NCBI GenBank assembly: GCA_965203805.1
Contig: OZ241917.1
Span: forward strand, 5,280,001 to 5,344,000
DNA length: 64,000 nt
Reading direction: 5' to 3'
From: Candidatus Latescibacterota bacterium
GTDB lineage: Bacteria; Latescibacterota; UBA2968; GCA-2709665
Part shown: positions 3,412 through 54,061 of the stretch, in pieces
Layout: every line of letters begins with the position of its first letter
Numbering within the stretch: the stretch's first letter is position 1
Position numbers and translations under genes: made by a program
The notes under the pieces: generated by a model
The model's input: only the letters and a program-made list of their open reading frames with translations
Database searches by the model: none
Told to the model about the DNA's origin: nothing

Positions 3412-4182
3412 ATGAAGTTCGTGCTGCATCGGTTTGAAGGATCCATCCTGTCGACTCTGGCCGCCCAGCGGAATAAACGCAAGCGCTTTCAACTGCTCCT
3501 TGCGGATCGGCGAACCGGCGTCCAGGTGGAAAAACGGGACAAGAACCCGGAGGCGGACCTGAAGCGGCGATATGGCCAGGTTCTCGGTCTTTCCTTCGCG
3601 CTTTCCGTCGCGTTGCATGCCGGATTTGCCGTTCTGTTTCCAACCCTGGACATTCAGGCCACAACTGGCAAACCGGATCAGATCGTGATTCAGGTCGAGG
3701 ATCTTCCCGAGACCAGGCAGATCACGCGCCCACCTCCGCCGCCCCGTCCGGCTATCCCGATTGAGACGGAAAGCGAAGACGTACCGGACGACGTGACCAT
3801 CGAGACGACCGATCTCGAATTGGAAGAAGTACCGGTGGATCTGCCGCCGCCTCCGACGGCAGAGAGTGAATCCATCCTCCTCGAAGAGGAGGAAATCCTG
3901 GAAGTCTGGAAGGTGGAGCAGAAGCCCAAGCTGATCAGGCGGGCGATCCCTTCATATCCGGATTTTGCGCTGCGTGCCGGCCTGCAGGGATCGGTGATGT
4001 TGAAAGTGCTTCTGGGCAAGGACGGGAAGGCGGAGTCGATCCAGGTGCTGAAAGGCGAGGAGATCTTCCGGAAATCGGCCATAGATGCCGTTGGCAAGTT
4101 CCTGTTCGAGCCGGCGCGCCAGAGCGATCGGCCCGTCAAGGTGTGGCTCGTGATTCCGATACACTTCAAGCTTGAGGAATGA
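3412..4182 (+). CDS. Energy transducer TonB family protein
   Basis: TM anchor (LSFALSVALHAGFAVLF), Pro/acidic linker and TonB_C domain (PSYPDFALRAGLQGSVMLKVLLGKDG...FEPARQSDRPVKVWLVIPIHFKL). RBS AGGGGG precedes ATG 3412. Confidence 0.9.
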   Translation: MKFVLHRFEGSILSTLAAQRNKRKRFQLLLADRRTGVQVEKRDKNPEADLKRRYGQVLGLSFALSVALHAGFAVLFPTLDIQATTGKPDQIVIQVEDLPETRQITRPPPPPRPAIPIETESEDVPDDVTIETTDLELEEVPVDLPPPPTAESESILLEEEEILEVWKVEQKPKLIRRAIPSYPDFALRAGLQGSVMLKVLLGKDGKAESIQVLKGEEIFRKSAIDAVGKFLFEPARQSDRPVKVWLVIPIHFKLEE

Positions 4183-4248
4183 GAGCGGCCCGTCAGGGGA
4201 TTCTCAATCACAACGGGTTCCGGAAAAACCGGAGCCCGTTGTGTGTAC
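4171..4248 (+). repeat. Direct repeat A1: tonB 3' end plus terminator (pairs with 5881-5958)
   Basis: 78-bp colinear match, about 10 mismatches by manual alignment. Confidence 0.9.
4211..4241 (+). terminator. Hairpin terminator downstream of tonB (second copy at 5921-5951)
   Basis: CAACGGGTTCCGG-AAAAA-CCGGAGCCCGTTG inverted repeat. Confidence 0.65.
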
Positions 4249-4298
4249 GTGGGTAGCGGTAAGACGTGAGACGGGAGATGAAAAACCTAAAACCGGTG

Positions 4299-4322
4299 AG
4301 ACGGTAGACGGTAGACGGTAGA
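4299..4322. repeat. Heptamer tandem repeat (AGACGGT)x3
   Basis: agacggt agacggt agacggt aga, preceded by related agacgtg/agacggg units at about 4262-4278. Confidence 0.8.
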
Positions 4323-4677
4323 TGATATCTTTGCCCGATAGGTTCTACGTTTATGCCTCCGGCACAAAATGAAACCGGACGCGGCAGGGGATCTCTACTA
4401 AACTCAATTGTCCGGTAATTTATGCTCTGATTGTTGACGTTCCTACCCCGCTACCACACAGCAGGGGCAGGCAAACTGAATCATGCTCCCCGTCATAAGG
4501 GCGAAACAGGGCACGAAGGCGTAATTTTTTTGTCATTGCAATATGGCGTAAAATCCGTTACATTCGATGATTGAGTGTGGCGTCCCGAGAATGACGTCTC
4601 CTTGCCATCCGTCTCTACGATAACGCGATCTTTCCAGCAGAGACAACCGACAGCTTAAACAGATGCAAACGTAACCC

Positions 4678-5814
4678 ATGGAGTCAGCCTTGTTTACCAG
4701 GATTCGCAGTCTGTTCGTTTTCTCGCTCGTCGCTGCCGTGAGCTGGGGCTGCGTTGCAGATAGTCTGCCCGAAAAGATCGAGATCGGCGTTGCACTCCCG
4801 CTGACCGGCCCGCAGATCTTATACGGCGCGCCGGCGTGGGAAGGCTTCCAGTTCGCACTTGAAGAAATCAACGGTTCATCGATACTCGGGGGCTCAAACA
4901 TCGAGTTCATCAGGGAGGATTCCCGAGGCACGGTCGATGCCGCCACGAAAGCGTTCAATAAACTTATCAAAGAGGACGGTGTGTCCGTCATCCTGGGTCC
5001 CGGTATTTCCACCGTGGCGAAGGAGGTGTTTCCGATCGCTCAACAGAGCGAGGTTCTGGCTTTAAGTTCGACATCGACCGCCGTCGGCCTGAGCGCGATC
5101 GGCGACTATATCTTCCGCACGGGCCTCAACGTCGGCACGCTCGCTCCAGGGGCCGTCAAGGGTACGAAGGAGAAACTGGGGTATCGAAAAGTGGCGATTA
5201 TGGTCGATTCGACCGACGTGTATTCCCTCAGCCTGGACGAGGAATTGCGCAACGCCCTTGCCGAGAACGAGGTCCAGATTCTGACAAGGGAGACTTTTGC
5301 AACGGGCGACACCTTGTTTGCCGACCAGCTGAGCAGAATAATGGCTTTGAAGCCGCAAGCCGTGTTTGTCTCGTGTCTGGCGGCGGAGATGATTCAAGTT
5401 CTGGTCAACGCCCATGAGGTTGGCGTCACTTCGATGATTCCTATGATCATACCTGAACTTTCCCTTGCCGAAGTCAAGAAAGCGGGCGACGCCGCCGAAG
5501 GCGCGATTTCCGTATTGAGTTGGGCAAGCAACGCGTCCACACCCGGGAACCAGGCCTTCGTTGAAAATTATATCGCCAGGTACGGCTACGAACCGCATCC
5601 ATGGGGCGCGATTTCTTACGTCTCGCTGGTTGTTCTCGCCAAAGCAATAGCGGAAACCGGATCGATGGACGCGAGTGAGATCAAACGCGCGATGATCAAT
5701 ACCCGGGAGGTCGATACGATTCTGGGGCGTTTCTCGTTCAATCCCGATGGCGACGCGGTTTACAATCCCATTGTGCTGAAGGTGCGGAACGGCGCCTTTG
5801 AAGTCTTCAAGTAA
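4678..5814 (+). CDS. ABC transporter substrate-binding protein, LivJ/LivK (branched-chain amino acid) family, probable lipoprotein
   Basis: Signal ending in SWGC; IGVALPLTG...G...ALEEIN motif; VILGP; C-terminal GRFSFNPDGD. No permease genes adjacent. Confidence 0.9.
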   Translation: MESALFTRIRSLFVFSLVAAVSWGCVADSLPEKIEIGVALPLTGPQILYGAPAWEGFQFALEEINGSSILGGSNIEFIREDSRGTVDAATKAFNKLIKEDGVSVILGPGISTVAKEVFPIAQQSEVLALSSTSTAVGLSAIGDYIFRTGLNVGTLAPGAVKGTKEKLGYRKVAIMVDSTDVYSLSLDEELRNALAENEVQILTRETFATGDTLFADQLSRIMALKPQAVFVSCLAAEMIQVLVNAHEVGVTSMIPMIIPELSLAEVKKAGDAAEGAISVLSWASNASTPGNQAFVENYIARYGYEPHPWGAISYVSLVVLAKAIAETGSMDASEIKRAMINTREVDTILGRFSFNPDGDAVYNPIVLKVRNGAFEVFK

Positions 5815-5880
5815 GCCAATCCATGGCCCCTGCTGAGATCGTGTAACGGGCGCGACACCGCCGCGCCCGGCCTTGCCCAT

Positions 5881-5958
5881 CTTCAGGAATGAGAGCGGCG
5901 CGTCAGCAGATTATCGAGCGCAACGGGCTCCGGAAAAACCGGAGCCCGTTGTTTGTAC
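5881..5958 (+). repeat. Direct repeat A2: diverged copy of tonB 3' end plus terminator
   Basis: cttcaggaatgagagcggcgcgtcag...caacgggctccggaaaaaccggagcccgttgtttgtac matches 4171-4248. Confidence 0.9.
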
Positions 5959-6104
5959 TGATCGTATTATCAAATGCGCTGCGATAAATTCGCGCCCAAC
6001 CTTTAAATTCCCCTATTTCCTTGCCCTCATATTTGGTTCGACACGAGACGCCTGGTCTTGCTCCCCCTCTCCTGCCGGGAGAGGTTTGCGCCGTCGCTGC
6101 AATT

Positions 6105-6189
6105 GTAGGGGCCTGCCTGCAGCGCCTGTCTGCGTGCTCCGTACAGGCAGGCAGTACGCTGCGCAGGCAGGCAACCCTTGTGGTTGCCC
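6105..6189 (+). repeat. GTAG-type REP interrupted by two nested CCTG...CAGG mini-palindromes
   Basis: Removing 6112-6171 restores GTAGGGGCAACCCTTGTGGTTGCCC. The inner element is at 6125-6151. Confidence 0.85.
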
Positions 6190-6257
6190 ACTGCAGTAAC
6201 GCGGGCATCGCCGATTGATTTCGCCGGTCCGTATCGCTTACCGGTTCTGGCTGATCG

Positions 6258-9730: not shown

Positions 9731-10876
9731 TCAGGGAGAACCGGTTTCCCAGAAGTAGATCGGTTTGCCCGTGGCGTCGATATAGCCGGATCGTCTTTCT
9801 CCGACCACGGGAGCCACGCCGTCGTTGAAGGGCCAGACCCTGGTGAATTGGGGTTCGACGATGTAATCGCCCTGTTGATTGATATACCCCCATCTGCCGT
9901 CGACCATGACGGCGGCGATTCCTTCGGAGAAGTGCTCGACGTGGTCGAAGCGAGGCTGGACGACAAAAACGCCGGTCTTGTCGATGAAACCGAATTGATC
10001 CCCGATTCGGGCGCCGGCCAGGCCTTCGCGAAAGGCGTGCGCCTCATCGAATTTGAGCGGTATGACGACTTTTCCGGTTTTGTCGATGTATCCCTGCTTG
10101 TCGCCAATGCCCACGCGTCCAAGTCCCTCCGCGAATCCCATGGCCCTTTCGAATCGCGGTGGAATGACCATCTCGCCGGTCTTATCGATATAGCCGAATT
10201 TATCGTCTTTTTTTGCGGCGTACGGCGCTTTGAAGTCAAAGGGTGGGTTTGCCATGGACGGGGCTCCTTTCCGTACCGTTCTCGATAACGGCGATGAGTG
10301 CGTTGCGGACGTCAGGGCTTCTTCGTCAGGCGTAAACCGCATATCTGTGAATGTTTCTTCGAGTTGTTTGCGCACTTTCCGTTTGGCCCTCAGGATGCGC
10401 ATCGTGACGGCTTTGTAAGTAAGGCTGTGGATTGATTGCAGGTCGGCATATCGGACGTCGTCCAGGTAACGGGCTTTGAGCAGACTCGCGTCCAGTCCCG
10501 GCAGCTTGTCGATTGCCCGCATGGTTCTTTCAAACGTCTCATCATGAATCAGACGCGCCTCAGCGGACCGATCGCGGTCGGGTTCCGCGTTTGTAAGAGG
10601 TTGGATGTCGGGTCGTTTGCGCCGCAGCCGGTTCAGGCATTCGCGACGGGCAATTTGACGCAGCCACGCCTCGAAACTCTCCGGGTGTCTTAGAAGAGCG
10701 AGGTTCCGATACGCCTTGAGGAAGACGTCCTGAGCGATGTCCTGGGCATCGTCAGGATGGCGGGTCCAGAGCAGGACCTGGGCGTATATGGAACCGTAGT
10801 GCTTCCGGATGAGTGGTTCGAGCGACCGGGTATCGCCCGCAAGGATCTCGCGGATCAGTTGTGCGTCCTGGTTCAA
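9731..10876 (-). CDS. ECF sigma-70 factor fused to a C-terminal WG (KWG) repeat domain
   Basis: Sigma region 2 (DAQDIAQDVFLKAYRNL...FEAWLRQIARREC), region 4 (RILRAKRKVRKQLE), then five GYIDKTG..VI.P.F...F.EG repeats in the same frame. Confidence 0.85.
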   Translation of the reverse strand: MNQDAQLIREILAGDTRSLEPLIRKHYGSIYAQVLLWTRHPDDAQDIAQDVFLKAYRNLALLRHPESFEAWLRQIARRECLNRLRRKRPDIQPLTNAEPDRDRSAEARLIHDETFERTMRAIDKLPGLDASLLKARYLDDVRYADLQSIHSLTYKAVTMRILRAKRKVRKQLEETFTDMRFTPDEEALTSATHSSPLSRTVRKGAPSMANPPFDFKAPYAAKKDDKFGYIDKTGEMVIPPRFERAMGFAEGLGRVGIGDKQGYIDKTGKVVIPLKFDEAHAFREGLAGARIGDQFGFIDKTGVFVVQPRFDHVEHFSEGIAAVMVDGRWGYINQQGDYIVEPQFTRVWPFNDGVAPVVGERRSGYIDATGKPIYFWETGSP

Positions 10877-11041: not shown

Positions 11042-12058
11042 TTGAAAGTCATCTATTCGCCGACCCACCGGCGCCACGCGCCGCGCTATCAGTTTATCGG
11101 AGGCGGGCTGAAGCCGTATCCCGAGGTCCCCGCGCGGGCGGAGGCGATTCTGCGCGCGATCGAAGTGGCCCATGACGTGCTGCCGCCGCGGGCGTTTTCG
11201 ATGGATGCCATTGGCGCGGTTCACGACCCGGGATATCTGCGCTTCCTGGAGCACGTCCACGCGGCGTGGGTGGATCGAGGTGGAGGGGGCGACACCGGGC
11301 TGATTCCCGACACGTTCGCCGCGCGCGCGTCGGCCCGCCTTCCGCGCGACGTCATACATCAGGCGGGTTACTATAGCTTCGAGACGCAGACGCCCATTGT
11401 GGCGCACACCTTCGAGGCGGCGCGCGACGCCGCGTTCTGCGCGCTGACCGGCGCCGCGATGCTGCTCGAGGGCGAGGCATCGGTCTACGCGCTCTGCCGT
11501 CCTCCGGGCCACCACGCGGCGGGCGAACTTTACGGCGGCTATTGCTATCTGAACCACGCGGCGATTGCGGCGAGACATCTCAGCGCCTCCGGACGGGCAG
11601 CCGTTCTGGATCTGGACTATCACCACGGGAACGGAACGCAGTCGATATTCTACGCGTCGGACGCGGTCCCGTTCGTTTCGATCCACGCGGCCCCGGACCA
11701 CGAGTATCCCTGGTTCAGCGGGTATGCGGACGAGGCGGGGGCGGGCGCCGGGAGAGGGTCGAATGTCAATTTCCCGCTTCCAATCGGCGCCGGCGATATG
11801 CGATACCTTGAGACCCTGGACCGGGCCCTGAACGAAGTGGAGGGATTCGCCCCCGCCTTTCTGGTGGTTTCGCTGGGCGTGGACGTCTGCCGGGACGACC
11901 CTATCGGCAAGTTCGACCTTCCGGTCCCTTCGTTTGAGGCGATCGGGCGTCGCCTTGCCCGGATGGACCTTCCGACGCTGTTGGTTCAGGAGGGCGGATA
12001 CGACCTGGAAACCATTGGCCCCTGTGTGCAGAATGTGCTTGATGGATTTGGGCGATAG
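11042..12058 (+). CDS. Histone deacetylase family / acetylpolyamine amidohydrolase
   Basis: CRPPGHHA, GGYCYLN, LDLDYHHGNGTQ and QEGGY motifs. Confidence 0.92.
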   Translation: MKVIYSPTHRRHAPRYQFIGGGLKPYPEVPARAEAILRAIEVAHDVLPPRAFSMDAIGAVHDPGYLRFLEHVHAAWVDRGGGGDTGLIPDTFAARASARLPRDVIHQAGYYSFETQTPIVAHTFEAARDAAFCALTGAAMLLEGEASVYALCRPPGHHAAGELYGGYCYLNHAAIAARHLSASGRAAVLDLDYHHGNGTQSIFYASDAVPFVSIHAAPDHEYPWFSGYADEAGAGAGRGSNVNFPLPIGAGDMRYLETLDRALNEVEGFAPAFLVVSLGVDVCRDDPIGKFDLPVPSFEAIGRRLARMDLPTLLVQEGGYDLETIGPCVQNVLDGFGR

Positions 12059-15092: not shown

Positions 15093-15105
15093 AATCGGAA
15101 GGATA
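15066..15105 (+). repeat. Direct repeat B1: uxuA 3' end (pairs with 16000-16039)
   Basis: atgcaggcggtgctctcggctgattgaaatcggaaggata vs atgcaggcaacgctctcggccgattgaaatcggaaggata, 36/40 identical. Confidence 0.9.
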
Positions 15106-15191
15106 ACAGCTTCTTGGACTCGTCCCGTCGATCCGGCGTCCGTAAGTCGATATTCTTTGGAGAGAACCCACGTATCCCTGGAGTCGTGACG

Positions 15192-15530
15192 ATGTTCGAT
15201 ACGAGCATATTCGACAGGGCGCTTAAGAAACGAAGAGAGAAGCAAAACCGCGAGAGACAGGAGTGTCTGCGTTCGGTTACGGATACTCTGAAGCGGATCC
15301 GTGGCGAATACGACATTTGTGAAGCATACGTTACGGGTTCGCTGTTGGTGGCGTATAGATGGAACAAAGCGTCCGACGTCGACGTGGCAGTCGGTGGGTG
15401 CTCCCGATCGGTCCTGGACGTGATGAAAGCGCTGGAAGACGCTACCGGCAGGACCGTGGACGTCATCGATCTGGAAATGCATCCATTTCCAGATTCGGTC
15501 AGGGACGGGGGTTTGAAAGTATATGGATGA
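15192..15530 (+). CDS. Minimal nucleotidyltransferase (MNT) antitoxin
   Basis: GS-x10-DVD motif (YVTGSLL...SDVDVAV) and VDVIDLE; overlaps the HEPN gene start. Confidence 0.85.
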   Translation: MFDTSIFDRALKKRREKQNRERQECLRSVTDTLKRIRGEYDICEAYVTGSLLVAYRWNKASDVDVAVGGCSRSVLDVMKALEDATGRTVDVIDLEMHPFPDSVRDGGLKVYG

Positions 15531-15984: not shown

Positions 15985-15999
15985 GCGTATTCGCGCTGC

Positions 16000-16039
16000 A
16001 TGCAGGCAACGCTCTCGGCCGATTGAAATCGGAAGGATA
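16000..16039 (+). repeat. Direct repeat B2: diverged copy of uxuA 3' end
   Basis: Matches 15066-15105. Confidence 0.9.
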
Positions 16040-42068: not shown

Positions 42069-42199
42069 TCCACGTCTAACGTTCGGTCCCGCAGGGAAAC
42101 GTGCTGGGAACGGATGACGCCCTTGAAGGCGGCGACGTACTGCCCGGCTTCCGCACTCGCGTCCAACATCTATTTTACCGGGATCGAATATCGAGATGA
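42069..42199 (+). pseudogene. Remnant uma2 3' fragment (direct repeat C2) abutting the zorA start
   Basis: Encodes ...NVLGTDDALEGGDVLPGFRTRVQHLF... with TAC>TAA near its start. Its TGA overlaps the zorA ATG. Confidence 0.85.
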
Positions 42200-43902: not shown

Positions 43903-44780
43903 CGAGCGGCCATAGACCAACGGGGGACGCGGGTTCCGAAGGACAGAGCTATCTCGCAAGCGTAAGCGACCTTGTGTCCGCACTCATTTTTGTATTTATC
44001 ATCATGCTGGCCGTGTTCGCGTTCCAACTCGCAAACGTAATCGAGGATCAGGCTAAGGTCACGGAGGAATTGACCGCTTCGGACGAAACTCGCAATCGAA
44101 TGCTCCAGGACATCAAGAGCCGGCTTGAGGAATCCGGAATGCGGGTCCAGGTACTGGCTGATCAGGGTATCCTGCGGCTTTCAGATAACGCGATCAACTT
44201 CCCGTCCGGTAGTGAGATTCCGGTTCCGGAACACCACGTAAACGTTGGACGGCTCGCCCAAGCTATTGCCGAGGTGGTACCTTGTTATGTCGCTCCCACA
44301 GAGTCCGTCTCGCCAGCCCTGGGTGATGGCGACAGTATTGACGTGGAGCACGGCGACGACTCACCCGTTTACTGCCAGCCTAAGGCCGATCCTACTGGCT
44401 ATCCATGTAGAGATCGGGAGTATCCCTGGCTACTCGAGACTCTGCTGATAGAGGGCCACACTGACGACGTTCCGGTCGCGGCTGGCAACCGCTTCCGAGA
44501 TAATCTTGAGTTGGCGTCGATGCGGGCGGCAACAGTCCATCGCATGATCGCCGTGTGCGAACCTGGATTGGAAGGCCTTCTGAATACGGACGAGTATCCC
44601 ATTTTGAGCACAAGCGGGTACGGCTACGCGCGGCCCGTTACCCTCGACCCGGAGCGGGCTCGTGACAACCGCCGCATTGACCTGAGATTTCTGCTCGAAC
44701 CTCCGGCGGGTGCGCTGCACCAGAAGGAACCGGAGGTCCAGACCGACGTCCGCGAAAGGTATGATGAGGAATCACCGTGA
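43899..44780 (+). CDS. zorB: Zorya protein ZorB (MotB/OmpA-like)
   Basis: SVSDLVSALIFVFII with conserved Asp; IEGHTD, NLELASMRA and NRRIDLRF motifs. Confidence 0.92.
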   Translation: MTSGHRPTGDAGSEGQSYLASVSDLVSALIFVFIIMLAVFAFQLANVIEDQAKVTEELTASDETRNRMLQDIKSRLEESGMRVQVLADQGILRLSDNAINFPSGSEIPVPEHHVNVGRLAQAIAEVVPCYVAPTESVSPALGDGDSIDVEHGDDSPVYCQPKADPTGYPCRDREYPWLLETLLIEGHTDDVPVAAGNRFRDNLELASMRAATVHRMIAVCEPGLEGLLNTDEYPILSTSGYGYARPVTLDPERARDNRRIDLRFLLEPPAGALHQKEPEVQTDVRERYDEESP

Positions 44781-46564
44781 AGACGCCCTCCCTAAAGGAG
44801 TCGCTGGAGCGCTGGACCTGCCCACGAAAGCTGCCACATCCCTTCGATCCGCAGAAAACGCGAAAGGCAGCCGCAGAAGCAGCGGCGGTGCTTGGCGACG
44901 TCGAGTCGAGGAAACCATCGAATTACGACTTGGCGACCCTGCATTTGCGAATCACGGAATCATGGCGCCAATCCCGAACTCTTTCGGAGATTAAGCCCCG
45001 GGATTTGCGCCGACTGCCCTGGGTTCTGTTTTACCCGCCAAAACAAAAGCGTACCGCTTGGCTGGGTGCCGAACCACGCGTCCTTGAGGCATACCGTCGC
45101 TGGTTGATCGACCGTCCCCGGACTCGCCCCGTGCTGGCGTTGCTGCACGAGTTTCTGCGGGTATACCCGGTCGGACTTCGGACCTTTGGCGATCTGAGAA
45201 AAATATTGTATGGGTCCGTCAATGACGGGTCATCGCCGCCTCCGTCTTTACAGAAATGGCGAAAACGGTGCCTCGATTGGGAACTTCTCAGGATGGGTGG
45301 CGATCGGTCGTTCGTGCAAAACCTTGTCTCCGCCTCCGATGCCATTGACGACATCCTCTGCCGTGCGGGGCTCAACGGCGGACTCGCGCAATGCGGGTTC
45401 CTGAATTCGGGCATCCGGGCCTACCTCCGGCACGCAGAATCCCTTTTGATCCAGAATCGCCTCAACGCCGCAGATCTCGACCGGTTGCTCACTCTGCTCG
45501 AATTCGAGGGCAAACTGCGATTCGACGACACGGCCATGCGTACCGAAGTCGCTACAGCTTTGCTCAGACCCTTTATCGAGAGTCAACCAGATCCTGCGAC
45601 GCGAGAACGCATGCAACCGTTTTTCTTGCGCCATTACCGCGACCCTCGCCTGGGGTCAGGAAGACACAAGTGGTCAGGCATTCCCGACGAGATCCGCCGG
45701 GTCGTGATCCGTTGGCTCGTGGAACGCGCCCTCGAACAGTTCTTCTTGCTCGTCAAGGAAACGGCGCTCGACCGGCACTGGCGCTACCGGGAAGCATTCT
45801 GGCGGGCCTTTCACGAACACGATCTGATCGATGACATCTGGTTCATTTTGGGTCGGAATGCGAAAGAAATGCTCCGGAAGAGGAATACGAAGAACGACGA
45901 GACTGAAACGACCGCCGAACTTCTAGGCGCTCAGGGCGACCAGTCGGTTCTTCTCCTGCGCATGTCCGGCGTGACGATTGCCGAATGGAGCCATAACGGT
46001 AGTTGCAGAATATGGCTTGATGGCAATGGGAACGCCCCTAATTTGTATCAAGGTAAAGCCTATTTCGGTGACGATCTGAGGAGCGGTTCGGATTTCTCTC
46101 AACCCCATGTCCGCAGTCAGGTTGGCCTCTGGCAGGACAAAATAGCACAATGGTTGCGTGACAATACCGGCGTGGAGATTGCTCATTCCGAGTATTTCCC
46201 GGACCGATTGCGAAAACGCGAGACCAATCGCTACCTGAATGCCACAACGTCGACCCGGAGTTCACGAAGTCAGCCCGCAGCAGCAAGCCGCAGTGGCCGC
46301 CAGCCACAAACCAATCGAAAACAATCAACCGCAGCAGCGCTTAGTGAGTTGCAAAGGGTTCGAGCCGCTGTCAGGGCCTCCCACAAGAGCCGAGTGAATC
46401 TACGTGCATTCATGAAGCCGACGTCACCAGCCTGGGCCGCTTACGTGGAGGACCACGGGGTGCCGGGCTATGGGACGCGGTGGAGAACGGTGCTCCGTCA
46501 ACTTAACTCGACGATCGAACGTCTGAATGAACGTCCAGGAATTTCCAGCAACTGGTCGACATGA
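44777..46564 (+). CDS. zorC: Zorya protein ZorC (EH-signature domain)
   Basis: DPR...W, FF...HW..R..FW, IAEWSHNGSCRIW and H...WQ motifs; located between zorB and the SNF2 helicase. Confidence 0.88.
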   Translation: MKTPSLKESLERWTCPRKLPHPFDPQKTRKAAAEAAAVLGDVESRKPSNYDLATLHLRITESWRQSRTLSEIKPRDLRRLPWVLFYPPKQKRTAWLGAEPRVLEAYRRWLIDRPRTRPVLALLHEFLRVYPVGLRTFGDLRKILYGSVNDGSSPPPSLQKWRKRCLDWELLRMGGDRSFVQNLVSASDAIDDILCRAGLNGGLAQCGFLNSGIRAYLRHAESLLIQNRLNAADLDRLLTLLEFEGKLRFDDTAMRTEVATALLRPFIESQPDPATRERMQPFFLRHYRDPRLGSGRHKWSGIPDEIRRVVIRWLVERALEQFFLLVKETALDRHWRYREAFWRAFHEHDLIDDIWFILGRNAKEMLRKRNTKNDETETTAELLGAQGDQSVLLLRMSGVTIAEWSHNGSCRIWLDGNGNAPNLYQGKAYFGDDLRSGSDFSQPHVRSQVGLWQDKIAQWLRDNTGVEIAHSEYFPDRLRKRETNRYLNATTSTRSSRSQPAAASRSGRQPQTNRKQSTAAALSELQRVRAAVRASHKSRVNLRAFMKPTSPAWAAYVEDHGVPGYGTRWRTVLRQLNSTIERLNERPGISSNWST

Positions 46565-46684
46565 GCCGTACCAAAATACCGTTGTTCCGTTCGATCCCGC
46601 GACTGGAAAACCGGCCGATATAATTCAGAAGATCCCTGGTTTGGACCGGGGCGGCGCATATCCCGGAACCGTGGAGCATATTCC

Positions 46685-49642
46685 ATGCCGAACCACTTTG
46701 TGAATGAGCCGACGCCGTCCGGCCTGATTGTAAAGATGGCAGGCGATCCTCCGTTTCCCGTAACGGAGTGGACCGCACATGCAGACGCAATCCCGGGTGC
46801 CGGAGCCCTGATTAGATTGCGCGACGACGGCGGTGCGTCAGAATGCGACAACGGTACGGCGCTCTGCGTCTCCTGGAAAACAGTCGCCGGACTGACGTCA
46901 GACGAATTGCGGTACACCGGTCTTCCCGATGCTGCACCCTTTGCGCTCGAGGTGTCGGCGAACGGCGCCATTCACGATCCTGATTTCGAAATCCGCTGCG
47001 GCTACGTTCGGCTCGGTCGCCGCGTCCTCGGGGTTCAGCGCGATGGCGCCTGGCTTCGTGTCGGCGGTGACGAATTTGTGCTGCTGGATCCGCTGTACTC
47101 CATCGCCGACGCCATTGACCGTTTCAATCGGGCCGACAAGAAGGATCTCGAAGCCCGAATGCTCCGGTGGGGACGGGTCGCGGAGATGCTGCCTGACGAC
47201 ACCGTTGTCAGCGACGAAAACCTGAGGTCGTTAAGAATCTCCGTGGCGTCAAGCTTTGAACTCGATCCGTTCGTGAACGACGACGGCGAACCCGACTTCG
47301 ACCCGGTCGTCGGCCGGCGCGAAACCCGTGTCAACGAGGCGGGGGAGGAGGAACAGGTGTTCGCTGGTGCTTTACCGCTCGCTCGTCAGAAGGAGTTTGC
47401 GAGGAGATTTCGCGGCCTTTCTGGGGTGAAGCAACGGTACCTCGCCGGGGGCGGCAGCTACGTTGTTCTGACACCGGAGGTCGAGCGGGCTCTGGACGTG
47501 GTACGGCGCGCTCAGGACGGGAGTGCCGACGAGCGCCGCGATTTCCTGCGTAACGTCAGCGGGTACCTTCGAGGCGCATTCGATGAAGATGACAGCGACG
47601 AGGTTGAACTCGACAGCGTCTTCAGCGACGACGGTCTGAGTGAACGGGTAAGGGGCGTCGGCATCTGGGTCGACAAGGTGCTCCCCTGGATAAAACTGGC
47701 TAAGGAGCCCTGGTTGCCGCCCGACGAATTGGGGATTCTTATCGACGGAAGGCGCGTGGTTATTCCGCCAGAAGCGCTTGATGGTGTCTGCGATCGGCTT
47801 GAGAAAGCGATCGAGTGCGGCAAATCGACCGTTGGGATCGTGATCGATAATAAGCCCTTTGAAATCCCCGCGAACAAGGCCACGCTAAGTACCCTTGAAG
47901 AATTGGTCTCTCGGTCAAACCAGAAGCCGAAACGCAAGCAAACAGACAGCGTTAAACCGGTCGAACCCGCAGACTCCAGTCAGGTTCTGGAGGTCATCGA
48001 TAACCTTGATGAAATCCAGTTCCGCCGTGAACGCAGGCCCTGCAGGCCCGGCATCCTGGCCGCCGATCCCGCCTTGCAGACCGAGCTTCTACCGCACCAG
48101 CAGATAGCTCTCTCGTGGCTGCACGGTCACTGGGAAGCCGGAAACTGGGGCGCCCTGCTCGCTGACGATATGGGCCTCGGAAAGACGTTTGAAGCGCTGG
48201 CTTTTCTCTCGAGTCTGAAAGCTTACTCCGAAACTGGGGGCTTGCCGCACCTGCCTGTCCTTGTCGTCGCCCCGACCGGTTTGCTCCGGAACTGGATGGA
48301 CGAACACGATAAGCATCTTTCAGGTGCCGGACTCGGACATGCCGTCGAAGCGTATGGCATTGGTTTGCGGGATCTCAAAAAGGGCGCGTTCGGACGGGGC
48401 GACGAGCTCGCTGGTGGACAACCGATGCTGAACCTCCATCCCCTGAAGACCGCCGACTGGGTGCTCACCACCTATGAAACCCTGCGTGACTATCAACATA
48501 GCTTCGGCCGTGTACACTGGCGCGCGGGCGTCTTCGATGAAGCTCAAAAGATCAAGAATCCCGGTGCACGCCTCACCGATGCGGCGCTGGCCATGAACAT
48601 CGATTTCACGTTGTTGTTGACCGGTACCCCCGTCGAAAATCGACCAGGAGACATTTGGCCGATGGTCGACCGTGTTGAGCCGGGGATGTTCGGGACCCTG
48701 AAGGAATTCAGCCAGCGGTACGAAGCGGTCGGCGAAGACGGCGCCGCGGCGCTCGCGGAGTTGCATCAAAGGCTGACGGCCGAGTCCGAGGCGCCGGCGT
48801 TAATGCTGCGGCGGCTGAAGGAGGAACACATCCCGGAACTTCCGGAAAAGGAAGTGCACAGGCGCGTCGTGGAGATGCCGAAAGAGCAGGCCGAAGCGTA
48901 CGCGGAGATTGTGATGAAAGGCGAATCTGACAGAAACATGCTCCAGACGCTCCATCAACTTCGAAGCGTCTCGCTACACCCGGCGGCGCCGGGCAAGTTC
49001 GACACCGACAAGTACATCCTGGCGTCTGCGCGGCTGTCCGAGGCGTTCCGGATTCTGGATCGGATCGAAGACCTCGGCCAGAAAGCGCTGCTCTTCGTGG
49101 AGACGCGCTGGATGCAGGACTTCCTCGTGGGGGCGCTGAGACGACGTTTTTCATTGTCCGAGGACGTGCTTGTCATCAACGGGACGGTGGCCGGCAGAAG
49201 CCGTAAAGCGCGAGTCGATACGTTTCAGGAACGGAAAGGGTTCGACGTAATGATCTTGTCGCCGCGTGCCGGCGGAGTCGGCCTCACGTTGACGGCAGCA
49301 AACCATGTCATTCATCTCTCCCGATGGTGGAACCCGGCCGTCGAAGATCAGTGTACTGACCGGACTTTTCGTATTGGCCAGCGGCGGACGGTGCACGTGT
49401 ACCTTCCTATCGCTCGTCACCCGGACTTTGGAGACTTCAGCTTCGACATCAAACTCGACAGCCTGATCGAAAACAAACGGGAGATGAACCGTCGGGTGCT
49501 CGCACCTACAGCGGCGACAAAAGGGGACGTAGGCGAACTCTATCGAACCACCATAACGGAAGCACGTCGCGGCGATGCTGAGACTGATATGCAGGACGAT
49601 CAGGTTGACGTCGATTTAACGGAGCCTGAGGCCTTAGAATGA
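46685..49642 (+). CDS. zorD: Zorya type I protein ZorD, SNF2 helicase portion (ends before the nuclease domain)
   Basis: LLADDMGLGKT, DEAQKIKNP, LTGTPVEN, GGVGLTLTAANHVIH and WWNPAVEDQCTDRTFRIGQ. Confidence 0.92.
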   Translation: MPNHFVNEPTPSGLIVKMAGDPPFPVTEWTAHADAIPGAGALIRLRDDGGASECDNGTALCVSWKTVAGLTSDELRYTGLPDAAPFALEVSANGAIHDPDFEIRCGYVRLGRRVLGVQRDGAWLRVGGDEFVLLDPLYSIADAIDRFNRADKKDLEARMLRWGRVAEMLPDDTVVSDENLRSLRISVASSFELDPFVNDDGEPDFDPVVGRRETRVNEAGEEEQVFAGALPLARQKEFARRFRGLSGVKQRYLAGGGSYVVLTPEVERALDVVRRAQDGSADERRDFLRNVSGYLRGAFDEDDSDEVELDSVFSDDGLSERVRGVGIWVDKVLPWIKLAKEPWLPPDELGILIDGRRVVIPPEALDGVCDRLEKAIECGKSTVGIVIDNKPFEIPANKATLSTLEELVSRSNQKPKRKQTDSVKPVEPADSSQVLEVIDNLDEIQFRRERRPCRPGILAADPALQTELLPHQQIALSWLHGHWEAGNWGALLADDMGLGKTFEALAFLSSLKAYSETGGLPHLPVLVVAPTGLLRNWMDEHDKHLSGAGLGHAVEAYGIGLRDLKKGAFGRGDELAGGQPMLNLHPLKTADWVLTTYETLRDYQHSFGRVHWRAGVFDEAQKIKNPGARLTDAALAMNIDFTLLLTGTPVENRPGDIWPMVDRVEPGMFGTLKEFSQRYEAVGEDGAAALAELHQRLTAESEAPALMLRRLKEEHIPELPEKEVHRRVVEMPKEQAEAYAEIVMKGESDRNMLQTLHQLRSVSLHPAAPGKFDTDKYILASARLSEAFRILDRIEDLGQKALLFVETRWMQDFLVGALRRRFSLSEDVLVINGTVAGRSRKARVDTFQERKGFDVMILSPRAGGVGLTLTAANHVIHLSRWWNPAVEDQCTDRTFRIGQRRTVHVYLPIARHPDFGDFSFDIKLDSLIENKREMNRRVLAPTAATKGDVGELYRTTITEARRGDAETDMQDDQVDVDLTEPEALE

Positions 49643-49915
49643 TGGGTAATCAAGAAACTCTCTAAAGCCGGCTGCGTTACCCGCAAAAAGCCGCGGAGTG
49701 GCGACGCTGGAGCTGATGGTCTGGCGCTATCACGCAGTCGTGACGAACCACACACGGTTATTTTGCAGTGTAAGCACATGCAGCCAGAGGCCAAGTGCGG
49801 TCGAAGCGCGTTCCAGGAAGTGTTGAATTCACTACCCGCGTACGAAGACGTAATTCGCGGCGAAGCACGTCTGATGGTCGTGACAAACGGCGCCGGCTTC
49901 ACAGCGAAGCGATAA
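49643..49915 (+). pseudogene. zorD: Disconnected Mrr-type nuclease domain of ZorD
   Basis: In frame after TGA 49640-49642: WVIKKLSKAG...SGDAGADGL...VILQCKH...LMVVTNGAGFTAKR*, a GD.GAD...QxK Mrr motif. Confidence 0.88.
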
Positions 49916-50652: not shown

Positions 50653-50934
50653 ATGAAACTCATGCACAAGATCAACCTCCACGAAGCAAAGGACTGTCTC
50701 GCGTCACTCGTTAGAAAAGTGGCTGATGGCGAGGAAGTGATTATTACCGACGAAAGCGGTCTGGCATTTAAACTCGTCCTTTTGGGACAGGCACCCGGTT
50801 CACAGGACGACATTCGAGGGAAGTTCTTCGATCCCGAAGGCTTGTGGGAACATGCGAAACCAATAACCTTTGAAGATATCGCTGAAGTGCGAAACGAAAT
50901 GTGGCGGAAGTTCGATCAGATGGATCAAGCATGA
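50653..50934 (+). CDS. Phd/YefM-family antitoxin
   Basis: INLHEAKDCLASLVRKVADGEEVIIT motif. Confidence 0.85.
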   Translation: MKLMHKINLHEAKDCLASLVRKVADGEEVIITDESGLAFKLVLLGQAPGSQDDIRGKFFDPEGLWEHAKPITFEDIAEVRNEMWRKFDQMDQA

Positions 50935-51068
50935 CGTCTCTGGTACTGGATACCCATTCAATACTCTGGTTCCTGGCGCGTTCATCAGATACAAAAGACT
51001 CAAACGGAAATCAAAATACGACTTCCAATGAACTTCCAGTAAAATCAGATATCCCCCTTTGCTACTGA
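50931..51068 (+). pseudogene. Truncated VapC (PIN) toxin
   Basis: ATGA-coupled to the antitoxin. MTSLVLDTHSILWFL is a PIN N-terminus, followed by unrelated sequence and a stop after 45 aa. Confidence 0.8.
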
Positions 51069-51940: not shown

Positions 51941-51976
51941 TAAACGCCCAGGGGGTGAAATCCTCCTGGGCGTTTA
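51941..51976. terminator. Strong hairpin (start of repeat D1)
   Basis: TAAACGCCCAGG-GGGTGAAATCCT-CCTGGGCGTTTA. Confidence 0.55.
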
Positions 51977-52266
51977 TACATAAAGCTTGTGGGAACTGCC
52001 GAAGCCGATTACGTCTGCAGGCATTGACGTGGAGGGGAACGAACCCAGCCGCCAGAACTCACGAACCATTAACCTCAATCCGAAAAAAACATCAACGGGT
52101 CGCTGCGACGAAACCTTCCGAAACGGGCCGAAAAGGTCGTCCGAAAGGACATTTTTTCCGTTCACGTCCAGTGACCTGACGTATCATAGAAATCAGCAGT
52201 TAAATCGCCTTTATTCACTTGCACATATTCGAATTAGCGTTCCCGAATAATGACGAATCAATGTTA
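51946..52266 (+). repeat. Direct repeat D1 (pairs with 53690-54061); contains the 77-bp core at 52190-52266
   Basis: Shared blocks gcccagggggtgaaatcctcctgg, gcttgtgggaactg.cgaagccgattac, ggacatt.tttccgttcacgtccagtgacctga and the core. Confidence 0.9.
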
Positions 52267-52600
52267 AAACACGTTCAAATACATCTGGCTTGAGTTTCTC
52301 CGTCCTCCTATTCGTTGCAAACAGCTTTTCAACATCTCTCATTCTAACCAGCGTTGCATTCTCATAATAGACAATCGAAGGTTCTTTTATGCGAGAGTGG
52401 TCTCCCCTCTTCAAAACAGTCGTCGAATCTTGCCAACGCTTCCGATACGTGATCACATTTACCAAAATCACCCTGTCATCCAACCCGACAGGTTCGCAAA
52501 GGACAATGTTAAGGTGACCTCCACTCTTCGATCCATCTGGCAAAATCGCAGTATCTCCAGGCCCTACAGGCCCAACAACCGCTCCCTGTACCCCGTGCAT
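52211..52600 (-). CDS. Putative PemK/MazF-like toxin paired with the Panacea antitoxin (C-terminus encoded by the repeat)
   Basis: HLNIVL...VILVNVIT...DSTTVLKRGDH..I..PSIVYYENA pattern; downstream of and overlapping the Panacea gene. Confidence 0.6.
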   Translation of the reverse strand: MHGVQGAVVGPVGPGDTAILPDGSKSGGHLNIVLCEPVGLDDRVILVNVITYRKRWQDSTTVLKRGDHSRIKEPSIVYYENATLVRMRDVEKLFATNRRTEKLKPDVFERVLTLIRHYSGTLIRICASE

Positions 52601-53115
52601 CGAATGTCCTCAAGAATTATCTCGATATCCTCCGGACAGTAATCCACAGCCTTCAAAATGTCTCCAAGATTGATAGGCACCCTACCCTTCTTTACTTCCG
52701 TATACTCAGGAAATTCATGCGTATAATCCTTCAATTCTTGAAATGACCAACTCCCAAACTTCCCGAAGAGTCCATCCATGATCTCCCTATCCGACCGAGA
52801 AAGACGACCGAAATACGGCGGCTCTCCAGATAAAGAGACACCATTTCCATGGGTCACAAAATAAGAATCCCACTCCCTTTCTCTCTTCTTCCCATTTATC
52901 AAATCTAACGTATTGCTCAGTATAGGCCCATTCGCCATCGAAAAATAGTTGTCATAGGTAACAGCATAACCGCGCTGACGAAGTGACTCCCGATCCAACA
53001 TGTACAAAAACTTCATAAGCCTGAACTTATCCCAAACACCCCCTGCTAAATTGAGATAATACGCTGTAGCCTGAACCGTTCTGTCTAAACGAAATCTCGG
53101 CGGCGTCCAGTTCAT
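52564..53115 (-). CDS. Panacea (DUF4065/SocA-like) antitoxin
   Basis: LMKFLYMLDRE...YFSMANGPI...LSRSDREI...FG...ELKDYTH motifs. RBS AGGAG. Confidence 0.88.
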   Translation of the reverse strand: MNWTPPRFRLDRTVQATAYYLNLAGGVWDKFRLMKFLYMLDRESLRQRGYAVTYDNYFSMANGPILSNTLDLINGKKREREWDSYFVTHGNGVSLSGEPPYFGRLSRSDREIMDGLFGKFGSWSFQELKDYTHEFPEYTEVKKGRVPINLGDILKAVDYCPEDIEIILEDIRCTGYRERLLGL

Positions 53116-53689
53116 GGATCCTCTCCTGTTGGTAGGATCGCTGAGGGGATGGAATGCTTTGAGGATACGTTTTGGGCTCTTGGCTGGAGCCTGGTCTCAA
53201 TGAACCTGGTGACGTTTTCGTAGATTACAACTTCAAGCTCCGGTGGCTTTTCGGGTTCTTCTTTTGCCGGGGGCTTTTGCGGTTTTGTACTGTATGACCT
53301 ATTGAGACGTTCTGACCTCCAGAAAAAGAAGAAATAATCCTCGCCTTTTGTCAACTACAAATATACAATTCAACTGTTCACGTTTTCGCAGCACATTCAC
53401 TGCCGTCCAAGAACCGTGGGATTCACAGAGATGAGGTTCGAAGAGCGGGTTAAATTGGCGGTCTTGTACGGGTCCTACCCGGATAACGAAAACCAGGTTG
53501 CCATCGGTTCGTGATTGTTTTAACGCATGTCATTCTGAGTGTAGTCGAAGCATCTCCCGCCGCGTCCGTCCGGTGCTGCAGGCGGACGTGCTGCCTCTCA
53601 AGATTCGACAAGCGAAAATCGCACGGGGACGATCCGATGCAGCAGTAGATCCATCGTCGGCCTGGGGGGCACCCTTCGACAGGCTAAGG

Positions 53690-54061
53690 GCCCAGGGGGT
53701 GAAATCCTCCTGGACCTTTTTTCATTAGGCTTGTGGGAACTGACGAAGCCGATTACCTTTGGAAACATTGATGAAATGCAAAACGAAATGGGGCGTGAGT
53801 TAGCCTCAATGTGAAAAAAGAACACCGAAAAATTGGCCACAAAAAGCACAAACGGGACAAAAAGCATCCGTGCAAAGCGGCGCGTGTCATAACGAGGACC
53901 TTGCAGTTCTTTCCTCACCGGACCGAATAGGACGTCAGGATGGACATTCTTTCCGTTCACGTCCAGTGACCTGAAGGTTCATTGAAATCAGCAGTTTAAT
54001 CGCCTTTATTCACTTGCATATATTCGAATTAACGTCCCGGAAAATTGACGAATCAAGGTTA
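53690..54061 (+). repeat. Direct repeat D2; 77-bp core at 53985-54061
   Basis: Matches 51946-52266, with a REP-like insertion in the middle. Confidence 0.9.

Follow-up and report, generated by a model that had tools for sequence, protein, structure and literature searches.

Insertion with long target duplication was described for restriction-modification (RM) genes by Nobusato et al. (2000), whose work Furuta et al. (2010; PMC2853133) carried further. In the latter paper, such insertions are characterized by repeats of more than 30 bp, an insert of less than 20 kb, the absence of a mobility gene and a single copy of the repeat at the related empty site, and further by the absence of the repeat elsewhere in the genome and the presence of restriction and modification genes in the insert. 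Imperfect repeats are found there too (e.g., 44/46 and 60/65), and repeat-mediated amplification is proposed, as it was in a preliminary description of the DNA studied here. Homology-facilitated illegitimate recombination is treated by de Vries and Wackernagel (2002), Prudhomme et al. (2002) and Meier and Wackernagel (2003), as cited in PMC5361080, and also in PMC3240628. At Rhs/CDI/T6SS loci, orphan 3' ends and arrays of immunity genes are described by Kirchberger et al. (2017; PMC5361080) under 'sequential displacement'. The microcin H47 island of E. coli, according to Azpiroz et al. (2011; PMC3191183), has extensive imperfect direct repeats and no recombinase of its own, and its excision and integration were demonstrated experimentally and are independent of homologous recombination. 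Finally, in a 2017 study (PMC5635113), accessory genes are located at fixed sites between core genes, with no mobility genes and with recombinant flanks.

In the 64,000-nt stretch of DNA analysed here (the window), which belongs to a chromosome of roughly 5.9 Mb from a Latescibacterota-like bacterium, four accessory blocks each lie between imperfect direct copies of adjoining sequence. All four repeat pairs of the preliminary description were recovered at the positions given there, well above chance: self-BLAST of the window yielded seven direct pairs at most 8 kb apart at E ≤ 1e-3 (E from 9e-8 to 1e-43), while such pairs were absent from all 30 block-shuffled windows. The repeats are 78, 40-47, 144 and about 320-375 bp long in cases 1 to 4, respectively, and the inserts (0.9-2.8 kb) are all below 20 kb. 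Two further statements of that description hold, namely that the four repeats have no common sequence (the families do not cross-match in the self-BLAST) and that the blocks contain no recombinase or transposase, no such family being detected with Pfam in 50 + 13 ORFs or in the 127 frames scanned out of 178 that run from stop to stop over 45 aa or more in the accessory and intergenic regions. The gene calls also agree with the earlier ones (Pfam, PADLOC), the MNT and RelE/ParE matches being below the Pfam cut-offs. The window has no tRNA or tmRNA gene and no Rfam match at the gathering score.

Several familiar kinds of element do not fit these findings. The repeats are direct and 40-375 bp long, and no transposase was found in the ORFs and frames scanned, unlike a transposon or IS with its terminal inverted repeats, short target-site duplication and transposase; they are copies of the flanks, with no integrase in that scan and no Rfam match, unlike an integron cassette array with IntI, attI and attC; and, unlike what an integrase-borne element or CIME would show, the window has in that scan neither a tyrosine nor a serine recombinase, it has no tRNA or tmRNA gene, and the repeats share no sequence. 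The window also holds an insert of 1.1 kb (about 18690-19690), found in none of the relatives, that lacks any repeat.

Cases 1 and 2 can be compared with five syntenic relatives (L001-L005; Latescibacterota/"Gemmatimonadota" MAGs). In case 1, the left anchor is a tonB-like gene (3361-4182, + strand; Pfam TonB_C, 3.2e-17) with orthologues in all five. Copy A (4171-4248, +) consists of the last 9 nt of tonB with the stop codon, a spacer and a terminator hairpin (-39.1 kcal/mol, z -4.3), and copy B (5881-5958, +), downstream of LivK, consists of a relic of the tonB end with the terminator; the two are identical at 68 of 78 positions. The LivK block (4533-5839, +) comprises a promoter-like region and a gene for a periplasmic binding protein (4678-5814; Pfam Peripla_BP_6, 2e-55). 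It is common to both clades, with 91-93% nucleotide identity to L003-L005, and its divergence at 4-fold sites is 0.10-0.14 in all pairs, as against 0.24 (within clade 1) to 0.35 (between clades) for the neighbouring genes. By this measure, the divergence of LivK is a third of that of the genes around it, and LivK is young.

The repeat structure of case 1 recurs in L001, an independent assembly, where the two copies compare very differently with those of the window. Copy B is identical at 77 of 78 positions, with 83% and 92% in the flanking segments, while copy A is identical at only 61 of 78. In L001, copy A keeps a clade-2-like spacer and copy B differs in type (58/78 identical to A). Clade-1-specific states are present in both copies, which lie at the same distance from clade 2 (56-62%). 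The downstream copy appears to be of a foreign type. In L003-L005, LivK occupies the same intergenic region with one terminator copy only. A partial MITE-like element (4249-4400, no strand assigned) with 7-nt repeat arrays and a central hairpin adjoins copy A, and its family has three copies in L004 and further copies in L005 and L001. By abutting copy A, this element masks the direction of events in case 1.

In case 2, the left anchor is a uxuA-like dehydratase gene (14037-15092, +; Pfam UxuA, 1.3e-37; 93-95% amino acid identity to relatives). The core of the repeat (15066-15105 and 16000-16039) is identical at 36 of 40 positions, and its extended form at 41 of 47 with one gap. Copy A (15060-15105, +) covers the last 27-33 nt of the gene, the stop codon and 13 nt beyond with an RBS-like GGAAGGA, a junction type also found in L001; copy B (15993-16039, +) is a relic of the uxuA end, present in the window only and 62 nt upstream of the start of an SDR gene (16091-16882, +; Pfam adh_short) that carries a recombinant tract. 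Between them lies an MNT-HEPN toxin-antitoxin pair (MNT 15114-15530, Polbeta 3.4e-4, below cut-off; HEPN 15523-15984, HepT-like_2 8.7e-26; both +). MNT, with or without HEPN, is found at the same uxuA/SDR site in L001, L004 and L005 and is absent from L002 and L003. No second repeat copy is detectable in the three relatives that carry it, where 233, 34 and 66 of 300 shuffles, respectively, reach the observed score. MNT of the window differs from that of L001 at 14 of 51 4-fold sites, about equal to the genome average of 0.24. The repeat, in contrast, is window-only and 10-13% diverged, and is therefore younger than its cassette. Both copies carry the clade-1 ending, and the 62-nt spacer after copy B is like the 61-nt spacer at the empty sites. 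Copy B, the downstream one, could be the resident copy, or it could stem from a donor with an empty site.

In case 3, the stop codon of uma2 (38609-39235, +; Pfam Uma2, 2.4e-35; PADLOC candidate PDC-S03) overlaps the ATG of zorA. Copy A (39105-39248, +) contains the last 131 nt of uma2 and the first 17 nt of zorA, while copy B (42069-42212, +) is a decaying 3' relic of uma2 that runs into the real zorA start at 42196; they are identical at 119 of 144 positions. The block between them encodes a RelE/ParE-like toxin with a small upstream ORF (39254-39613 and 39610-39858, -; ParE_toxin 9.5e-4, below cut-off) and a DUF4268 protein (41019-42026, +; Pfam DUF4268, 8e-23; PADLOC candidate PDC-S11, 2.4e-109), and is followed by a Type I Zorya system, zorABCD (42196-49912, +; PADLOC ZorA1/B1/C1/D1). 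zorD is interrupted by an in-frame TGA (49640-49642), beyond which the frame matches the Mrr-like end of ZorD. The uma2 relic has an internal stop and changes at residues that are invariant in 20 homologues; it matches copy A at 32 of 42 residues and any of 120 database homologues at 30 or fewer of 42. A comparison of the copies by codon position placed 14 of the 25 differences at third positions, which exceeds 1/3 (p = 0.016) but is indistinguishable from the 50% expected under decay of one copy (p = 0.35). In a central run, chosen post hoc, all 11 differences are at third positions. Homologues of uma2 share contigs with homologues of zorA. On a contig of 49,448 nt, the closest ZorA (97%) is accompanied by a Uma2 of only about 84% identity, and the closest Uma2 (97%) is on a different contig; therefore, the uma2/zorA junction is a recombination boundary.

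Case 4 is of another kind. Copy b (51946-52266, +) is made up of a hairpin, an antitoxin-end relic, MITE-like pieces and a 77-nt element, the last of which supplies the final 18 codons of a toxin ORF. Copy c (53690-54061, +) lies directly upstream of a heparinase-like gene (54170). The two are identical at 264 of 375 gapped positions, with sub-blocks of 151 nt at 85% and of 82-87 nt at 84-85%. The Panacea block (52211-53354, -) consists of the toxin-like ORF (52211-52600; 208 homologues at E ≤ 1e-3), a SocA/Panacea antitoxin (52564-53115; Pfam SocA_Panacea, 1.3e-17) and another ORF (53112-53354). Parts of the repeat also occur elsewhere. A third, unlinked copy (d) of the 82-nt element, overlooked in the preliminary description, lies inverted at 58281-58362 (-), upstream of a PMT glycosyltransferase gene, and is 92.7% identical to copy c and 93.5% to copy b. 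An intact, source-like antitoxin-end module (50838-50912, +) inside a Phd-like ORF (50653-50934) is 79% identical to 53727-53801 and 61% to 51983-52057. Other parts match MITE-flanking sequence in L004. Case 4 is a separate, composite structure amid a junkyard of toxin-antitoxin genes, and at its centre is a discrete 77-82-nt element, of which there is a copy elsewhere too. Copies c and d of this element end at the same sharp point, and it is the sole att-like candidate among the repeats. The claim of four independent cases of one route was therefore too strong, case 4 being partly built of dispersed elements.

A fifth pair, also overlooked previously, flanks a TPP-enzyme gene (36067-36144 and 38218-38296; 72/79 identical). 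It is formed by a GC-rich, palindromic, REP-like element, D6 (36067-36144, no strand assigned; hairpin -49 kcal/mol, z -3.2), which has a third, inverted copy at 6105-6192 and a partial match in L005.

The relatives allow the view of the repeats as marks of gene acquisition to be assessed. A single copy of the repeated stretch is found in relatives without the block, i.e., in L002 for LivK and in L002 and L003 for MNT-HEPN, so that the refuting observation named in the preliminary description, two copies in cassette-free relatives, was not made. To this extent, and with respect to the lack of mobility genes, its reading of gene acquisition that leaves flank repeats is partly supported. The same blocks, however, are present at the same sites with no duplication in other relatives (LivK in L003-L005; MNT in L001, L004 and L005), and in case 2 the repeat arose after its cassette; acquisition therefore need not leave a duplication. 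The proposed exchange of related alleles is heavy in this lineage. Over nucleotides ~110-500, the SDR gene of the window has 94-98% identity to L003 as against 75-89% to L001; tonB has 95-97% identity to L003 over its first 240 nt; and the AMP-ligase gene of L001 is 92% identical to L003. As such mosaic tracts show, recombination between lineages is pervasive, and the clade-2-like spacer in the resident copy of L001, with a downstream copy of the other type, is in line with it.

The repeats look like scars that arose later, when allele recombined against allele in a lineage with strong recombination. Tentatively, with a probability of roughly 0.45, cases 1-3 are taken to be scars of the long-target-duplication type, produced by host recombination via homology-facilitated illegitimate recombination. 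In these cases, a block of 0.9-2.8 kb lies between diverged copies of 40-144 bp that span the stop codon of the upstream gene. The recombination machinery of the host would act on DNA of a related lineage, the alleles of the same locus differing in whether they have the block. The incoming DNA would pair by homology at one end and would at the other be joined illegitimately before the start of the homology, and both the incoming and the resident flank copies would thereby persist, a dedicated recombinase being unnecessary. We infer both the one-sided step and the identity of the resident copy. The different histories of the case 1 copies between the window and L001 (77/78 for B, 61/78 for A) support such a scar, and together with the mosaic tracts they are compatible with homology-facilitated illegitimate recombination. 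Further support comes from the single-copy empty sites of cases 1 and 2, the lack of recombinase and transposase families in the ORFs and frames scanned, the low divergence of LivK, the empty-site-like spacer and the younger repeat of case 2, and the third-position excess and uma2/zorA boundary of case 3. In products of this process, the illegitimate join usually has a few bases of microhomology, and in experiments recipient DNA is usually deleted rather than left as a duplicate. At the present junctions, no microhomology is visible beyond the ends of the repeats. The conservation of copy B at 77 of 78 positions is unexplained by a recombination scar, and a further point against it is that the closest known relative of each gene-anchored relic is its own partner copy.

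The latter point is what duplication in situ predicts for cases 1-3. Here, a single entry of the block, through a staggered double-strand break or through template switching during replication, would leave the recipient flank copied on both sides, with the copies diverging afterwards, which is literally the model of Furuta et al. (PMC2853133). This origin is considered unlikely. It accommodates the divergence of 10/78 in case 1, which is close to the 4-fold divergence of LivK and is expected if the repeat formed at its arrival, and the uma2 relic, with its internal stop and changed invariant residues, is like a decaying local copy. In case 2, however, the cassette is older than its repeat, and none of the three cassette-bearing relatives has the repeat. 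The apparent rates of the two case 1 copies between the window and L001 are very unequal, the clade-2-like spacer of L001 is in copy A and not in copy B, and LivK entered the same intergenic region in L003-L005 with no duplication.

An intact gene followed by a relic 3' end is also the classic look of integration into the 3' end of a gene. The repeats might accordingly be attachment sites used by an integrase acting in trans, or remnants of decayed CIME-like or MccH47-like elements, with the blocks as non-autonomous passengers; this is distinctly improbable. The same sites are used by several lineages, copies c and d of case 4 share their sharp end and d, which precedes a different core gene, resembles an unoccupied site, an IS110-family transposase is present in L005, and the MccH47 island (PMC3191183) moves with no recombinase of its own. 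Against this, the four families of repeats are unrelated in sequence and vary in length between 40 and ~370 bp, the window contains no tRNA gene and, in the 63 ORFs and the 127 of 178 frames scanned, no integrase, transposase or fragment of one, and relatives hold the same cassettes with no repeats.

The near-identity of copy B between two genomes, with sides at 83-92%, gave rise to a bolder and very doubtful idea, namely that the blocks are recombinase-free 'homing cassettes', each including, as a part of itself, a copy of the preceding gene's 3' end and terminator. If so, RecA of the host would use the repeat arm for excision as a circle and for re-insertion behind the same gene in related cells, and defence and toxin-antitoxin cargo would spread site-specifically with no element-encoded enzyme.

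Dispersed repeats that flank blocks by chance (REP-like palindromes, MITEs or promoter-like elements), with no insertion duplication, already explain D6 and part of case 4. D6, the 82-nt element and the antitoxin-end module each have three copies in the window (one of D6 being inverted), parts of case 4 match MITE-flanking sequence in L004, and the MITE family extends across L001, L004, L005 and the window. A repeat pair around the IS110 gene of L005, in REP-rich DNA, is in line with this. As a general account they are highly unlikely, because in cases 1-3 the repeats take in coding 3' ends that belong to particular genes, each repeat occurs exactly twice in the window and at no other place in seven related loci, and the empty sites show one copy. 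Of the dispersed families named as a refutation in the preliminary description, third copies are seen for the case 4 elements, and none for cases 1-3 in the window and the seven related loci. An assembly artefact, in which two co-assembled strains with and without a block were threaded into one contig, is extremely improbable even though the source is probably metagenome-derived and the difference of 10-17% between copies is of the size seen from strains up to species, for the window lies within a contig of 5,865,457 nt, the joining of a cassette end to a second flank allele requires junction-spanning reads, and the case 1 structure is reproduced in the independent L001 assembly (5.4-Mb contig).

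Compared with the known systems, the blocks resemble the microcin H47 island in being small, with imperfect direct repeats and no recombinase of their own. As at the Rhs/CDI/T6SS loci, an incoming module anchored upstream would displace the old 3' end downstream as a relic; those loci, however, encode polymorphic toxins in which the 5' part is constant and the 3' part varies, whereas the anchors here are ordinary genes (tonB, uxuA-like and uma2), and the relics, of 12-131 nt, come with no orphan immunity gene. Accessory genes at fixed core-gene sites, with no mobility genes and with recombinant flanks, are shared with the system of PMC5635113; the double homologous crossovers described there leave no flank duplication, and the repeats here are proposed to be imperfect, one-sided outcomes. 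The one-sided anchor and illegitimate join of homology-facilitated illegitimate recombination fit the finding of a foreign block behind an upstream gene that is intact, but junction microhomology is not seen here, and this process is a proposed one. With insertion by long target duplication, the present cases share repeats of variable length above 30 bp, inserts below 20 kb with no mobility gene in the ORFs and frames scanned, and a single aligned copy at the empty site in case 1 (L002) and case 2 (L002, L003). The repeats of cases 1-3 have only two copies each in the window and the seven related loci, while those of case 4 have further copies at 58281-58362 and 50838-50912; the MITE-like element beside copy A of case 1 bears on the absence of mobile elements. 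In contrast to the set of Furuta et al. (2010), the cargo is LivK, MNT-HEPN, RelE/ParE-like with DUF4268 and the Panacea toxin-antitoxin genes, with no RM genes, the repeats are more diverged (83-90%), and in relatives the same cargo is found at this site with no repeat. The mechanism is not new, this kind of scar having been described already, and the blocks work like the long-target-duplication class but outside its RM set.

The window has a G+C content of 59%, with patches of lower G+C at 39–42 kb and 50–54 kb, and its gene map, built from open reading frames (ORFs) with high third-position G+C together with Pfam and PADLOC, agrees with the gene names of the preliminary description; the Pfam matches for MNT and RelE/ParE fall below the Pfam cut-offs. 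Four accessory blocks are each bracketed by diverged direct repeats. In case 1, tonB (3361–4182) is followed by a gene for a LivK-type binding protein (4678–5814). In case 2, MNT (15114–15530) and HEPN (15523–15984) genes stand between a uxuA-like gene (14037–15092) and an SDR gene (16091–16882). Case 3 begins with uma2 (38609–39235) and a minus-strand RelE/ParE-like pair (39254–39858), followed by about 1.1 kb in which no gene is recognisable, a DUF4268 gene (41019–42026) and a type I Zorya operon (42196–49642). In case 4, a minus-strand Panacea antitoxin block (52211–53354) lies upstream of a heparinase-like gene (54170). A further patch of 47% G+C (24114–24982) contains a weak ParE/YoeB-like toxin ORF and a 191-aa ORF of no assigned family; the window shows no repeat flanking this patch, and the relatives' loci stop short of it.

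The four repeat pairs were recovered where they had been described, with identities of 68/78, 36/40 (41/47 gapped), 119/144 and, for case 4, 264/375 gapped, the last comprising blocks of 151 nt and 82–87 nt at 84–85% identity. Self-BLAST of the window returned seven direct pairs at most 8 kb apart at E ≤ 1e-3, and none of 30 block-shuffled windows contained any such pair. The repeat boundaries are sharp, and no junction microhomology was seen at the repeat ends. Either copy of the case-1 repeat has a strong terminator hairpin (z = -4.3 and -4.6), the case-4 repeat begins with a hairpin, and the repeats of cases 2 and 3 are unstructured. The blocks had been said to lack a recombinase or transposase, and indeed no such family was found in 50 + 13 ORFs or in 127/178 open frames ≥ 45 aa long in the accessory regions. 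Neither a tRNA gene nor an Rfam match at the gathering score was found in the window.

The data are best fitted by recombination at one locus between alleles with and without the block. One crossover would be homologous and the other illegitimate, so that both flank copies would survive.

Relatives were obtained from one genome_contigs scan with a deacetylase-family protein (11042–12058) as the query. Five of the seven loci found (L001–L005) span the full 21 kb with conserved gene order, and come from MAGs labelled Latescibacterota or Gemmatimonadota. By nucleotide identity and four-fold sites, the window pairs with L001 (clade 1; 0.24 differences per four-fold site), and L002–L005 make up the other clade (clade 2; 0.35 to the window, 0.21–0.26 among themselves). 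The start of tonB (3361–3600) and a tract (nt ~110–500; 16150–16600) of the SDR gene, which lies directly behind the downstream repeat copy of case 2, are 94–98% identical to L003, and the AMP-ligase gene of L001 (17110–18672) shares 92% identity with L003 against 83% with the window. These are recombinant tracts between the clades. The sigma-70/WG-repeat gene (window 9731–10876) is missing in L002 (9929–10001) and present in the other four of the five syntenic relatives.

Repeat-flanked blocks in the relatives' 21-kb loci are limited to the LivK case in L001 and one insert in L005 (3900–6350), in which an IS110-family transposase gene (4875–5987, minus strand) and a MITE copy lie between direct repeats of ~190 nt (3997–4182 and 6063–6247). 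These repeats are 87% identical to each other and lie in intergenic DNA of which L003 and L004 have a single copy; a relative-rate test on this REP-rich DNA gave 67% and 72% identity of the two repeat copies to the orthologous stretch in L004. An insert of ~1.1 kb and low G+C is present only in the window (~18690–19690, between the lactonase and AMP-ligase genes; ORF 19028–19438, no family), where it interrupts a terminator hairpin found whole in L001; self-BLAST of the window detected no flank repeat at this insert.

For case 2, the anticipated empty sites exist in L002 and L003, which have uxuA, a 61-nt spacer and SDR; in the window the distance from copy B, the downstream repeat copy, to the SDR start is 62 nt, as in the empty-site spacing. 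The same site holds MNT and HEPN in L005, MNT and a HEPN remnant in L001, and MNT only in L004. No significant degenerate relic of the uxuA end was found behind these cassettes, the score being matched by 233, 34 and 66 of 300 shuffles in L001, L004 and L005, respectively. Between the window and L001, MNT differs at 14 of 51 four-fold sites, approximately the genome average, and the cassette is therefore older than the split of the two. The repeat, in comparison with L001–L005, is found in the window only and its copies are 10–13% diverged; it is therefore younger than the cassette. Next to SDR, a 174-aa minus-strand ORF (16876–17400) shows 0–7 differences at 64–78 four-fold sites, with DNA 86–88% identical to that of the relatives, and the real reading frame here is probably a different one.

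In case 3 the uma2 stop codon overlaps the zorA ATG, and the repeat extends 17 nt into zorA. The uma2 coding parts of copies A (upstream) and B (downstream) have 25 differences (4, 7 and 14 by codon position), affecting 12 codons synonymously and 10 non-synonymously; the share of third positions exceeds 1/3 (p = 0.016) but does not exceed the 1/2 that a decaying local copy would give (p = 0.35). In the relic, copy B of the uma2 3' end, there is an internal stop, and residues that are invariant in 20 homologues are altered. Among the 120 homologues listed, no Uma2 allele is nearer to relic B than copy A is (best 30/42 versus 32/42). Duplication of the target in situ stays a serious rival to recombination between alleles, because every relic has its own partner copy as its nearest relative.

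Twelve contig sizes, seven of them ≤ 52,333 nt, are common to the Uma2 and ZorA match lists (120 + 120 listed), and this recurrence indicates that uma2 and zorA are usually linked. A ZorA relative of 97% identity is on a 49,448-nt contig together with a ~84% identical Uma2 (P0010; contigs matched by size), and the best 120 DUF4268 homologues listed include none on that contig. These results give indirect support to an empty uma2–zorA site and to a recombination boundary at the junction. The closest Uma2 among the matches listed (P0001, 97%, on a 41,685-nt contig) has its tail in the +1 frame relative to that of the window's uma2 and continues across the region of the zorA start, so that its gene would be frameshifted in a C-run with the same junction sequence behind. 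At the other end of the operon, zorD has an in-frame TGA (49640–49642), after which the frame stays open for 90 further codons (to 49912). As these codons give matches both to Mrr_cat (1.6e-7) and to the C-terminal nuclease region of a ZorD profile (positions 961–1037 of 1071), the stop codon severs the nuclease domain.

The view that the repeats are not dispersed families held for cases 1–3 in the window and the seven loci, but had to be given up in part for case 4. A fifth direct pair (36067–36144 and 38218–38296, 72/79) flanks a TPP-enzyme gene; its element is a GC-rich REP-like palindrome with a third, inverted copy at 6105–6192. A partial REP-like match occurs at the equivalent site in L005. 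Likewise, a 77–82-nt part of the case-4 repeat recurs inverted at 58281–58362 (copy d, 93%), upstream of a PMT glycosyltransferase gene. The case-4 repeat also includes a relic of an antitoxin 3' end, of which an intact-looking version lies in a Phd-like ORF (50838–50912; three copies in total), and stretches of it match DNA adjoining MITE copies in L004. Because of these extra copies and MITE-adjoining matches, both the fifth pair and the case-4 repeat belong, at least in part, to dispersed families. Members of the MITE-like family itself (~200–260 nt) carry a central hairpin and, at their ends, inverted arrays of 7-nt repeats; copies lie in the window (4249–4400), L004 (6380–6620, 11860–12100 and 19180–19440), L005 (4330–4470) and L001 (3060–3190). 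The Phd-like antitoxin ORF and a following 55-aa ORF, whose start resembles a PIN/VapC N-terminus by eye with no Pfam match, appear to be a truncated toxin-antitoxin pair (50653–51068).

The 82-nt element (53985–54066 and 58281–58362) lies ~50–105 nt upstream of the heparinase-like and PMT glycosyltransferase core genes in like orientation, and could be a common promoter or leader, or an attachment site. A toxin-like ORF on the minus strand (52211–52600) terminates inside repeat copy b (51946–52266); its family has 208 matches at E ≤ 1e-3, most local alignments stopping near residue 111–117. The idea that its last 17 residues are foreign was weakened by a multiple alignment, in which a serine, a threonine and an L-x-R-I-C stretch align with homologues, and the 82-nt element may be either a 3' end of the toxin or an element of intergenic origin that became fused to the ORF. 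Copies c (53690–54061) and d have an identical sharp end, for which reason two independent relics fit less well than a discrete element or att-like site. Action of a recombinase in trans is an improbable source of the repeats overall and is most plausible for case 4.

For case 1, the single-copy empty site that had been looked for is found in L002, which has tonB, one spacer-terminator copy and the esterase gene without LivK. In L003–L005 a gap of 19 nt separates the tonB stop from the start of LivK, with the sole terminator copy 3' of LivK, and L001 carries copies A and B. Mis-assembly of two strains, earlier named as a possible source of the two-copy structures, is unlikely for case 1, because this independent genome reproduces it.

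LivK itself is 94–96% identical in every pair (window, L001, L003–L005) against 80–90% for its neighbours. Its four-fold divergence is 0.10–0.14 in all genome pairs, compared with 0.24–0.35 for neighbouring genes, and its coalescence is therefore far more recent than that of the genomes. The pattern suggests a gene-specific sweep or a recent transfer across both clades. The four clade-1 copies of the repeat do not behave as orthologous pairs: the two B copies are identical at 77/78 positions, the two A copies at 61/78, A and B at 68/78 in the window and at 58/78 in L001, and each is 56–62% identical to L002. The spacer of L001 copy A is clade-2-like, and both B copies and the window's copy A have another spacer type. 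Copy B is 98.7% identical between the window (5881–5958) and L001 (4711–4788), against 83% and 92% for the adjoining non-coding segments, an excess that could reflect constraint or very recent conversion. A uniform block of high identity from LivK to B was not upheld, the segments varying between window and L001 (91%, 82%, 95%, 83%, 98.7% and 92%). The MITE-like element lies directly 3' of the terminator in both genomes, and in the window it abuts copy A; the right flank of copy A was discarded as a 'native' marker against L002, being the end of this MITE family.

Together, the cases indicate a turnover of small accessory, toxin-antitoxin and candidate defence blocks that involves no mobile-element machinery, in a phylum that is uncultured and little studied. 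These blocks occupy fixed sites behind ordinary genes, with allele exchange between lineages frequent enough for mosaic tracts of a few hundred bases. Long flank repeats are useful markers of sites where block-bearing and block-free alleles met, and could permit loss or amplification of the blocks. Amplification through repeats is among the proposals of Furuta et al. 2010 (PMC2853133). Displaced 3' ends and orphan genes are explained by homology-facilitated illegitimate recombination in an account by Kirchberger et al. 2017 (PMC5361080), a recombinase-less island with imperfect direct repeats figures in Azpiroz et al. 2011 (PMC3191183), and mobile-element-free hotspots with recombining flanks in Oliveira et al. 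2017 (PMC5635113). The mechanism itself is not new, and the present cases add examples beyond restriction-modification genes to a class known since 2000.
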